DNA of 9,267 nt from a virus. Lineage: Duplodnaviria > Heunggongvirae > Uroviricota > Caudoviricetes. Positions within the stretch are counted from its first letter, which is position 1. The number at the start of each line of letters is the position of its first letter. The stretch lies in the IMG/VR virus record IMGVR_UViG_2690316142_000005; one strand, written 5' to 3'. Positions 6,001 to 9,267 of this stretch are shown piece after piece. Made by a program: the position numbers.

Positions 6001-9000
6001 AATGGTTTTTTCAGCATTAAATATTTATCATTCATATGGTGTGGGTAGAGTGAATATTGATGAGGCGTCGGGGTGTTTCATCCTTAGGCAGCGTATTGAT
6101 ATAGTCAATGCAGCACGAGCAAAGGCCTTCAGCCGTTTGACAGTTTTGTTCTGTACTCCTGATCGTCTTTCGGGAAGAGACGTTATTATTCTGAATAGTG
6201 ATGCTATACAGAGGGTTTGCGATGAGTTCATGGTTGCTAATTCAGAATTATTTGCTCTTGTTCAGGAGTACAACAGAATAGCCAGGACCTGTGGTATGGA
6301 TGAACTTCGGATTACTCATCTGGGGTAGATACATATCTGGATTATCACCTGTTACGGTAAAAAGTGATTGCTTACTGTTTTTGTGAATGGCATTGCAGCA
6401 GCCGGATAATGTCAGTGCTGGCTGACGGTGTGCTGGTGGCGGGTGTGGTGGTTGTTGCTTTCCCGTTGCTGAAAAAGAAAACGCCAGACTGTTAGCCGGG
6501 TATCAGTTAGCGGGAGAAATTTTTAAATACTTCACAATTCAGGCGGTTGACTGTTGTCTGGTTTGCGGGGAGTTTGTTAAAAGAAACTGGCATGGTGAAT
6601 CCCCCTGTGCGGAGGGGCAATCAGCGAGTAGGTATATGGGATAATCGCGGATTCAGGTGCTGGTACTGAATTCACCGGGAGGCACCCGGCACCATGCAAT
6701 GGCACATAGCGCCACTCTCCAGCCCCTCTCCGGAGGGGCTGTTTATATTGATTTTGTCAGATGTGANCACCCACCAGCCATCTGCTCATGCGTTGGGTTC
6801 ACAAGCAAACCTCAGGCCCACTGCTTTGCGCAAAAGCAGAATGAGCCTATCAGAGACAGGCTTAATGATCCATGCTTAATACTGTAAAAATATCCAGTTG
6901 TGAGTTAATCAACGCCGACTGCCTGGAATTTATCCGGTCGTTACCCGAAAATTCTGTTGACCTGATAGTCACGGACCCGCCGTACTTTAAAGTGAAGCCT
7001 GAGGGCTGGGATAACCAGTGGAAGGGCGACGATGATTACCTGAAGTGGCTGGACCAGTGTCTGGCGCAGTTCTGGCGGGTGCTGAAACCTGCCGGAAGTC
7101 TTTACCTGTTCTGTGGTCATCGCCTGGCATCTGATATCGAAATCATGATGCGTGAACGCTTCAGTGTGCTGAACCATATTATCTGGGCGAAGCCGTCCGG
7201 ACGCTGGAACGGATGCAACAAGGAAAGCCTGCGGGCGTATTTCCCCGCCACAGAGCGCATTCTGTTCGCGGAACATTATCAGGGGCCGTATCGTCCGAAA
7301 GATGCCGGGTATGCGGCGAAGGGCAGTGCACTGAAACAGCATGTGATGGCCCCGCTGATTTCTTACTTTCGTGATGCGCGAGCTGCCCTGGGGATAACGG
7401 CAAAACAGATTGCAGATGCCACAGGAAAGAAAAACATGGTGTCGCACTGGTTCAGTGCCGGTCAGTGGCAGTTGCCGAATGAAAGCGATTATCTGAAATT
7501 ACAGGCGCTGTTTGCCCGGGTGGCAGAAGAGAAGCATCGGCGTGGTGAACTGGAAAAGCTCCACCACCAGCTGGTGGATACGTATACCTCACTGAACCGG
7601 CAGTATGCGGAGCTGCTGAGTGAATATAAACATCTGCGGCGGTATTTTGGCGTGACGGTGCAGGTGCCGTATACCGATGTGTGGACGCATAAACCGGTGC
7701 AGTTCTATCCCGGGAAACATCCGTGCGAAAAACCGGCAGAAATGCTGCAGCAGATAATCAGCGCTAGCAGTCGTCCGGGTGACCTGATTGCAGATTTTTT
7801 CATGGGGTTGGGTTCGACAGTGAAAGCGGCACTGGCGCTCGGGCGTCGTGCAATTGGCGTTGAGCTGGAGACTGAACGTTTTGAGCAGACGGTTCGGGAA
7901 GTACAGGATTTAGTCAGCCAGAACGGATGATATTGAAGAATTAATTACGCGTCGTTATTATGCGGCTCCCGGCCCTTTAGCTCAGTGGTGAGAGCGAGCG
8001 ACTCATAATCGCCAGGTCGCTGGTTCAAATCCAGCAAGGGCCACCATCACATACCGCCATTAGCTCATCAGGAAAGAGCGCCAGCCTTCGAAGCTGGCTG
8101 CGCGGGGTTCAAGTCCCCGATGGCGGTCCATTATCTGCATCATGCGTTGTTAGCTCAGCCGGACAGAGCAATTGCCTTCTAAGCAATCGGTCACTGGTTC
8201 GAATCCAGTACAACGCGCCACACTTATTTTCCCTGGCTCGCTTTTGCGGGCCTTTTTTTTAAATGTCTCACAATTCAGACGGTTGACAGTTGTCTGTTTT
8301 GCGGGGAGTTTGTTAAAAGAAACTGGCATGGTGAATCCCCCTGTGCGGAGGGGCAATCAGCGAGTAGGTATATGGGATAATCGCGGATTCAGGTGCTGGT
8401 ACTGAATTCACCGGGAGGCACCCGGCACCATGCAATGGCACATAGCGCCACTCTCCAGCCCCTCTCCGGAGGGGCTGTTTATATTGATTTTGTCAGATGT
8501 GAGTAAACTCCTTATGGACTTTGTTGTTTTAGTCCATAAGGACATATTTGCAGAGTGCAACGGTTATTAAAGCATTCATTCAATACGTTATCTGTATTTG
8601 TAGGGCATTCCTGGCTATTTTTGATTGAATTCCAGAATGTTTTATTGAATGGTACTACGTTGTAAATGGTTACAGGTAGCACTTTGTTATTGAGCATGAT
8701 GCCTGTGTGAGTCAGTGTAAATATACTTTCAGGAGGTAAGAAAGCATCCGATTGATACCAGATTATTAATTTTATTTTACTCCATATGACTGAAAAAGAT
8801 ATTCCGCATGATGGCTGGATAACTGTATCAATCACAATCCACTTCATTTAGTTTCCTTGTTTATGCCTTGCTGGTGATGTTCTGAAAAGTATAAATGATA
8901 TTTTTGAATGTAAACCATAGAGCAGAATTATTTTTCTGATGTTGTTTATTGTTTATTTAAATGCAGGGTGGTTTATATCTCGTCTTGTAGTTTATCCATG

Positions 9001-9267
9001 CATATCTGCTTGATAATCAGGTTTTTATTTAAGGTATGGTTTTGTGTTTTTTCTGTATTACATGTCAGGTATTTTAAAGAATTATTTTTCAGATGGTGGA
9101 AAGAACCATGGCATTTAAACACTATGATGTTGTCAGGGCGGCGCCGCCGTCAGATCTTGCGGAAAAGCTGACACATAAACTGAAAGAGGGCTGGCAGCCG
9201 TTTGGTAGTCCGGTGGCCATAACCCCTTATACCCTGAGGTGTACTGGCAATAGCGGACACTACCATT

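Follow-up and report, generated by a model that had tools for sequence, protein, structure and literature searches.

The stretch of DNA analysed here (9,267 nucleotides (nt) of the IMG/VR virus record IMGVR_UViG_2690316142_000005, called the window throughout) covers the early-late junction of a lambdoid prophage. Close to its right end, between a second copy of the small RNA (sRNA) element STnc100 and the 5' part of a DUF1737/nanS-p-type gene, lies an AT-rich island whose reverse-strand gene is iraL, encoding an anti-adaptor of the IraM/IraL family directed at the response-regulator adaptor RssB. An earlier note, made from the sequence alone, had described this place as some 600 bp of very AT-rich DNA, lying just after the second promoter-terminator element and encoding on the opposite strand a cysteine-containing protein of 111 residues with a Shine-Dalgarno (SD) sequence. 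That description was accurate: 8510-9107 has a G+C content of 0.326, the open reading frame (ORF) encodes five cysteines and is preceded by AAGGAA, and the element in question is STnc100 copy 2. The same note recognised no family for the protein and took it for undescribed cargo, a view that the comparisons below overturn.

Identity of the island gene

The protein is identical at 110 of its 111 residues to WP_000871291.1, from the potB prophage of uropathogenic Escherichia coli CFT073. At the DNA level the coding sequence (CDS) agrees with CFT073 iraL at 334 of 336 nt (99.4%), and so do 131 of the 133 nt preceding the ATG. The CFT073 gene, c1429, was described in 2014 as iraL of the potB island (Hryckowian et al., PMC4045071), and it is also called iraL in PMC12890032. 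The 2014 study assigned a gene to iraL at 95% or more nucleotide identity over the coding region and 96% or more over the promoter/upstream region (PMC4045071); the CDS and upstream values given above both exceed these thresholds, and the window gene therefore falls within the published definition.

Other comparisons lead to the same family. The NCBIfam model NF007393 (IraM) scored 162 bits against a cut-off of 121, with residues 1-110 aligned to positions 1-113 of its 114. The best sequence match in the PDB was 8twd_A, the IraM chain of 8TWD (E 6e-31), and when 5426 complete E. coli genomes were searched at the DNA level, the 1-kb region was matched at up to 99.6% identity by loci that RefSeq labels 'anti-adapter protein IraM'. 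The gene is thus known and characterised. ORFs of at least this length arose in 17 of 2000 composition-matched shuffles of 8401-9200, and the ratio of non-synonymous to synonymous substitution rates (dN/dS) between iraL and its K-12 counterpart iraM is 0.146, showing that this is a real coding gene that evolves as a protein. Scanned locally against Pfam, the ORF had no match at E≤0.01; the sole one at E≤10, Nairovirus NSm, is meaningless. Weak PDB matches to Kti11/Dph3 zinc-finger proteins (E 0.24-0.8) were set aside as chance, being aligned to the N-terminal barrel and not to the cysteine tail of the protein.

The window gene and CFT073 iraL share their length, a QQSP tail, the mapped transcription start and the neighbourhood, with STnc100 upstream, a DUF1737 gene downstream and a lambdoid late region around them. 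They differ by one amino acid (L74S), by a G-to-A change at -1 and by a C-to-T change in the leader. Between its tRNAs and STnc100, CFT073 carries a DUF3927 gene that is missing from the second of the two modules present in the window, and the DUF1737 gene is interrupted by IS600 in the window only. The K-12 protein IraM (YcgW, b1160), encoded beside the e14 element, is a paralogue with the same fold, the same target, RssB, and the same four C-terminal cysteines; it is 61% identical over 107 residues without a gap, and the two genes share 67% nucleotide identity (PMC4045071). In contrast to IraL, IraM has only 107 residues, no QQSP extension and no 3' hairpin, and its gene is under PhoP/Mg2+ control, whereas iraL is on in exponentially growing cells without stress (PMC4045071).

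Table 1. Positions of the features in and around the iraL island
Feature	Position	Strand	Basis or remark
hok/sok type I toxin-antitoxin	sok RNA 783-958; Hok/Gef ORF 896-1108		sok RNA, RF01794
STnc100 sRNA element, copy 2	8297..8486	+	Rfam RF02076, 133.6 bits (gathering score 47)
Island-specific DNA, ~627 bp	8478-9104		Three-way alignment and BLAST block ends; present here and in CFT073; at this junction JLK-2012 and the Stx2 phage lack it
Perfect inverted repeat, 12 bp	8509..8542	-	Arms TCCTTATGGACT (8509-8520) and AGTCCATAAGGA (8531-8542), 10-nt loop
iraL CDS	8512..8847	-	ATG start, 111 codons and TAA stop; RssB anti-adaptor, IraM/IraL family
iraL 5' untranslated region (UTR), 33 nt	8848..8880	-	Contains SD AAGGAA; start at 8880 by match to CFT073 5' RACE
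iraL core promoter	8881..8916	-	-10 TATACT (8893-8888), -35-like GGTTTACA (8916-8909); position relative to the mapped start
Very AT-rich spacer (~30% G+C)	8917-9107	none	iraL promoter to DUF1737 start codon; probable regulatory DNA
DUF1737/nanS-p-type gene, 5' part	9108..9237	+	Pfam PF08410, E 9.5e-16
IS600 (IS3 family) end	9238-9267		Cuts the DUF1737/nanS-p gene after codon 43-44

Anatomy and distribution of the island

The composition of the island sets it apart from the remainder of the window. Compared with its G+C content, that of 1-8500 is 0.502, and the lowest value of any 598-nt window outside the island, over the whole sequence, is 0.40; within it, the iraL ORF has 0.345 and the upstream part (8848-9107) 0.296. 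Its limits became visible in a three-way alignment with the Stx2 phage Lyz12581Vzw and the stx-negative phage JLK-2012. Homology to both ends at about 8477, where the STnc100 terminator stem ends, and restarts at about 9105, a few bases before the DUF1737 ATG, so that in these two phages STnc100 runs almost straight into the DUF1737/nanS-p gene. No flanking repeats at the island ends point to transposition. The spacer between the iraL promoter and the DUF1737 gene has no gene annotation in any homologous RefSeq or GenBank record. Hidden genes were considered there and rejected: only short, overlapping ORFs are present (8968..9171 on the plus strand and 8973..9122 on the minus strand), unannotated in every homologous record.

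The gene carries its own transcription signals. The sequence obtained in CFT073 by rapid amplification of 5' cDNA ends (5' RACE), ACATCACCAGCAAGGCATAAACAAGGAAACCA (PMC4045071), matches the minus strand of the window from 8880 with one mismatch in the UTR, and the SD has its AGGA core 6 nt ahead of the ATG. Taking the octamer listed in Table 1 as the -35 element is our own reading. The proposal that the gene has promoter signals of its own therefore stands through the mapped start and the -10 TATACT, while the generic hexamer scan, whose two weak sites were fewer than those in shuffled sequences and which missed the RACE-mapped promoter, speaks neither for nor against the hexamers originally named. 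The absence of a transcript had been put forward as one observation that would refute the proposal; the iraL transcript has been mapped in CFT073 and is visible in RNA-seq (PMC4045071, PMC12890032). Late transcription runs antisense to iraL and Q-dependent read-through therefore cannot yield its mRNA; in the lysogen its own promoter must drive expression.

As for regulation, a shift to 37 °C raises iraL mRNA in CFT073, and higher IraL levels are reported for a fur mutant. The regions upstream of iraL and of K-12 iraM could not be aligned, which is consistent with the reported regulatory difference between the two genes. We also considered PhoP control like that of iraM and rejected it: the window holds a single PhoP-box-like site (8943-8959), which lies in a T-rich region, and such a site was also present in 35 of 200 shuffles of the window. 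Silencing by H-NS of the iraL promoter region, with its 30% G+C, is a reasonable guess.

At the other end of the gene, the earlier note had reported a perfect 11-bp inverted repeat bounding it. The repeat is real, although it measures 12 bp and lies inside the 3' end of the gene and not beside it, spanning the stop and the ten codons before it. In the mRNA sense it forms a 12-bp hairpin, and a 121-nt fold of the region, which includes the neighbouring STnc100 terminator stem, has an energy of -43.7 kcal/mol (z -5.9). The terminator scan reported no minus-strand terminators, and the hairpin, with only three U after its stem, is a candidate that may act as a terminator or as an mRNA stabiliser. 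STnc100 copy 2 is convergent with iraL, with its terminator at 8456-8477 followed by a T-run and its end 26 nt from the iraL stop. A weaker possibility is that the two transcripts overlap at their 3' ends and affect each other, or that late read-through does so.

Taken with its low G+C content, the sigma-70 promoter of iraL, its orientation opposite to the late operon and the variable presence of the island among related phages support the view that iraL is a horizontally acquired, independently transcribed insert of the moron type in the late region of a lambdoid prophage. The earlier note had proposed such a moron from the opposite orientation, own signals and deviant composition, and the finding that the island is missing from related phages bears this out. 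Like the classical late morons of lambdoid phages (stx, bor, lom and nanS-p), iraL is an extra late-region gene with its own promoter, a lower G+C content and variable presence. It differs from stx in where it sits and how it is oriented, stx lying between the tRNAs and STnc100, and iraL between STnc100 and nanS-p, antisense to the late transcript.

The location 'where Stx phages carry stx', which had been given for the island, is accordingly off by one element. In Lyz12581Vzw, the one Stx phage examined in detail to judge the stx position, the order is Q, a methylase fragment, tRNAs for Ile, Arg and Arg (4226-4477), stxA-stxB (4745-5808), STnc100 (5883-6084, 185.7 bits) and nanS-p. Because stx precedes STnc100 and iraL follows it, the two do not share a position. 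In the second module of the window, the stretch that corresponds to stx (8221-8296, between tRNA-Arg(tct) and STnc100) has nothing but a terminator-like hairpin, and its counterpart in the first module (5865-6560) comprises some 700 bp with a lower G+C content and a gene for a 43-residue DUF3927 protein (6364-6495), as in CFT073. An undescribed family of cargo in the stx slot, such as a toxin, a defence factor or an exclusion factor, could draw on the moron-like anatomy, which is real (own promoter, opposite strand, low G+C). Yet the family and its function are documented and the identity with iraL already refutes this explanation, the gene lies beyond STnc100, and the matching records of Stx-converting phages carry no iraL; we give it practically no credence.

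The survey of complete E. coli genomes shows how stable the arrangement is. iraL was present in 1446 of the 5426 genomes and near-complete in 1440, and at least 80% of a query spanning STnc100, iraL and DUF1737 was recovered in 1385 genomes, against the 1440 with a near-complete gene; the STnc100-iraL-DUF1737 arrangement is constant. Among 50,697 phage records only four contained iraL, at the same location, and none of these was Stx-converting; conversely, none of the records of Stx-converting phages that matched the query carried iraL. It agrees with the published finding that iraL is under-represented in enterohaemorrhagic and Shiga toxin-producing E. coli (PMC4045071). The gene, the target of its product, its promoter and its distribution have thus been in print since 2014, and genome annotation pipelines give iraL a name. 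An AT-rich orphan on the opposite strand beside the stx position is not automatically new cargo. What the present comparison adds is a more precise placement: iraL is a moron of fixed position, between STnc100 and the nanS-p/DUF1737 gene, one element past stx and antisense to the late operon.

Predicted action of IraL on RssB

An AlphaFold2 model built from 14 family sequences gave predicted local distance difference test (pLDDT) values of 75-84 for residues 1-78, which form beta strands followed by a helix (69-77). The best Foldseek match of this model was 8twd_A (template-modelling score, TMt, 0.86; root-mean-square deviation 1.5 Å), so that structure prediction, which had been suggested as a check on the family, also leads to a known one. 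Of the 15 residues through which IraM contacts RssB in 8TWD (clusters I-III and P66), 11 are identical in the window protein. The changes are T13S, L75I, I64V and H63N, and cluster I is kept at all five positions.

On this evidence the island is very probably the iraL moron of a lambdoid prophage, encoding an RssB anti-adaptor that stabilises RpoS in the lysogen. In the mechanism that we propose, host sigma-70 RNA polymerase would transcribe iraL leftward from 8880 in the lysogen, opposite to the late operon, and the 111-residue IraL would be translated through the 33-nt leader and its SD. The N-terminal domain of beta barrel plus helix (residues 1-78) would then bind RssB, which, once bound, would no longer deliver sigma-S (RpoS) to ClpXP. 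RpoS would consequently build up even in exponential growth, leaving the general stress response pre-armed in the lysogen. In CFT073, deletion and complementation of iraL alter the level and half-life of RpoS in exponential phase, and IraL binds RssB both in two-hybrid assays and in pull-downs (PMC4045071).

The next structural matches of the model were to PmrD (4hn7, TMt 0.71; 2jso, TMt 0.68), at 14-15% identity, and these bring in a different target. IraL could in principle be a PmrD-like connector acting on a response regulator other than RssB, for instance by protecting phospho-PmrA, and not on RpoS turnover. PmrD (PF11183) shares the small beta-barrel fold and is likewise a small protein acting on a receiver domain; the crystallographers of 8TWD found that IraM resembles only PmrD, and in their study IraM raised net RssB phosphorylation, a property of PmrD-like proteins. 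In addition, precomputed tables list PF11183 for IraL and IraM. Our local hmmscan against Pfam-A gave no PF11183 match at E≤10 for either IraL or K-12 IraM, a discrepancy that probably reflects a difference between Pfam versions. PmrD however protects phospho-PmrA, a target other than that of IraL, and the sequence identity is low; the CFT073 protein, which is nearly the same, binds RssB and changes how stable RpoS is (PMC4045071), and the RssB-contact residues are conserved. We therefore regard a PmrD-like target as very improbable.

Several observations weigh against the explanation outlined above. First, in two-hybrid assays IraL is reported to bind RssB's N-terminal domain alone, unlike IraM, and the 8TWD interface may not carry over fully to IraL. 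Second, the biochemistry was done with the CFT073 protein, one residue away, and the function of the window protein is deduced from 99% identity. That residue (L74S; codon 74, window 8627) is L or I in 13 of 13 other close-family members and adjoins contact residue 75, and the L74S allele was found in none of the 5426 complete E. coli genomes, where the best match reached 99.4% at the nucleotide level. Third, the prophage is decaying, with IS600 in the next gene and a duplicated module. Finally, the 3' hairpin lacks a U-tract, which leaves its part in ending iraL transcription putative.

Some of these points would fit a gene that is iraL by descent but present here as a non-functional or impaired allele, left behind in a degenerating prophage, in which L74S would harm folding of the C-terminal helix of the RssB-binding domain. 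The change is private to this allele with respect to the complete E. coli genomes, falls at an L/I position beside contact residue 75, and is accompanied by the IS600 interruption of the adjacent DUF1737/nanS-p gene. Against such a relic, the iraL ORF, SD, promoter and transcription start are all intact, and all other contact residues are kept. Moreover, the index of the assembly collection lists the exact S74 protein for 4016 blocks, and the six places given are chromosome-length NCBI records, so that the allele is stably maintained and no sporadic lesion. One of these records, HE616528.1, is what we take to be Shigella sonnei 53G. Those S74 loci carry the same IS600 junction as the right end of the window (9238-9267), so that the L74S allele with its IS600 neighbour also exists in chromosome-length assemblies, the presumed S. 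sonnei record included. We consider a lost or weakened function improbable and the S74 allele, by its close resemblance to the CFT073 protein, presumably active, in keeping with the anti-adaptor assignment.

The cysteine tail and the prophage neighbourhood

IraL has five cysteines, of which C14 lies in the N-terminal domain and C81, C92, C97 and C102 lie in the tail (residues 81-111, window 8515-8605). A profile search of 1.84 billion representative proteins returned 94 IraM/IraL relatives, and those with names came from Salmonella, Citrobacter, Enterobacter, Kosakonia, Intestinirhabdus, Dryocola and Franconibacter. Among the 32 full-length members, which go down to 20% identity, the invariant columns were M1, P12, W72, C81, C97, C102 and P103, with W30 and C92 kept in at least 90%. 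As far as this alignment can tell, the four C-terminal cysteines are the best-conserved residues of the family, in the motif C-P-x9-11-C-x4-5-C-x4-C-P. The homologues named RssC or 'IraM' in Salmonella, Citrobacter, Enterobacter, Kosakonia and others (about 108-125 residues) share the invariant residues with IraL, although their identity to it is only 20-41%.

The protein in the crystal structure 8TWD is truncated at residue 78, and the crystallographers called the tail less conserved and flexible. In our model the tail has pLDDT values of 49-60, and the model therefore cannot show whether the four cysteines converge. PmrD offers no counterpart of the tail either, as it has 85-88 residues compared with 111 in IraL and its Foldseek alignments span about 80-90 columns. 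No mention of a role for zinc or for cysteines in IraM was found in the searchable literature, and the conservation of the tail cysteines, a small point, may be new. We put forward tentatively, as a possibility with the odds somewhat against it, that the IraL/IraM tail is a conserved Cys4 mini-domain, zinc-binding or a redox/metal sensor, that tunes the stability or activity of the anti-adaptor. If so, the Cys4 tail may account for reports that the full-length protein is unstable and insoluble.

Upstream of the island the window carries, in order, hok/sok, the DUF968, RusA and Q antiterminator genes, and then, twice, a methylase gene with tRNAs (Ile2, Arg) and STnc100. This last arrangement amounts to a tandem duplication of a module (4409-8502). 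The methylase gene (4513-5571) and the 100 nt upstream of it recur at 6768-7930 (100% identity over 300 nt reported), the region of tRNA-Arg(tct) (5757-5877) recurs at 8113-8233 (91%), and the STnc100 copies (6561-6750 and 8297-8486) are 95% identical. The first tRNA cluster (5612-5864) contains only tRNA-Ile2(cat) and tRNA-Arg(tct), 100 nt apart, and the second (7971-8220) adds tRNA-Arg(tcg). The loci with the same S74 allele, assigned to S. sonnei, have one module only and no methylase gene.

On the right, divergence from CFT073 begins at 9238. An exact-match scan of a collection of genome contigs (genome_contigs) for the DUF1737/IS junction had no hit; the S74 loci that share it came from the look-up with the exact protein. 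The last 40 nt of the window are a multicopy repeat, found at up to 43 places per E. coli genome, which adjoins an IS600 transposase gene in strain RM8352.

In K-12 the gene that comes after iraM on its strand is ycgX (DUF1398), and in CFT073 iraL is followed by the lysis genes and then, again on the same strand, by ydfO (DUF1398). K-12 iraM may thus sit in a remnant of a late region of the same kind from which the lysis cassette has been deleted.

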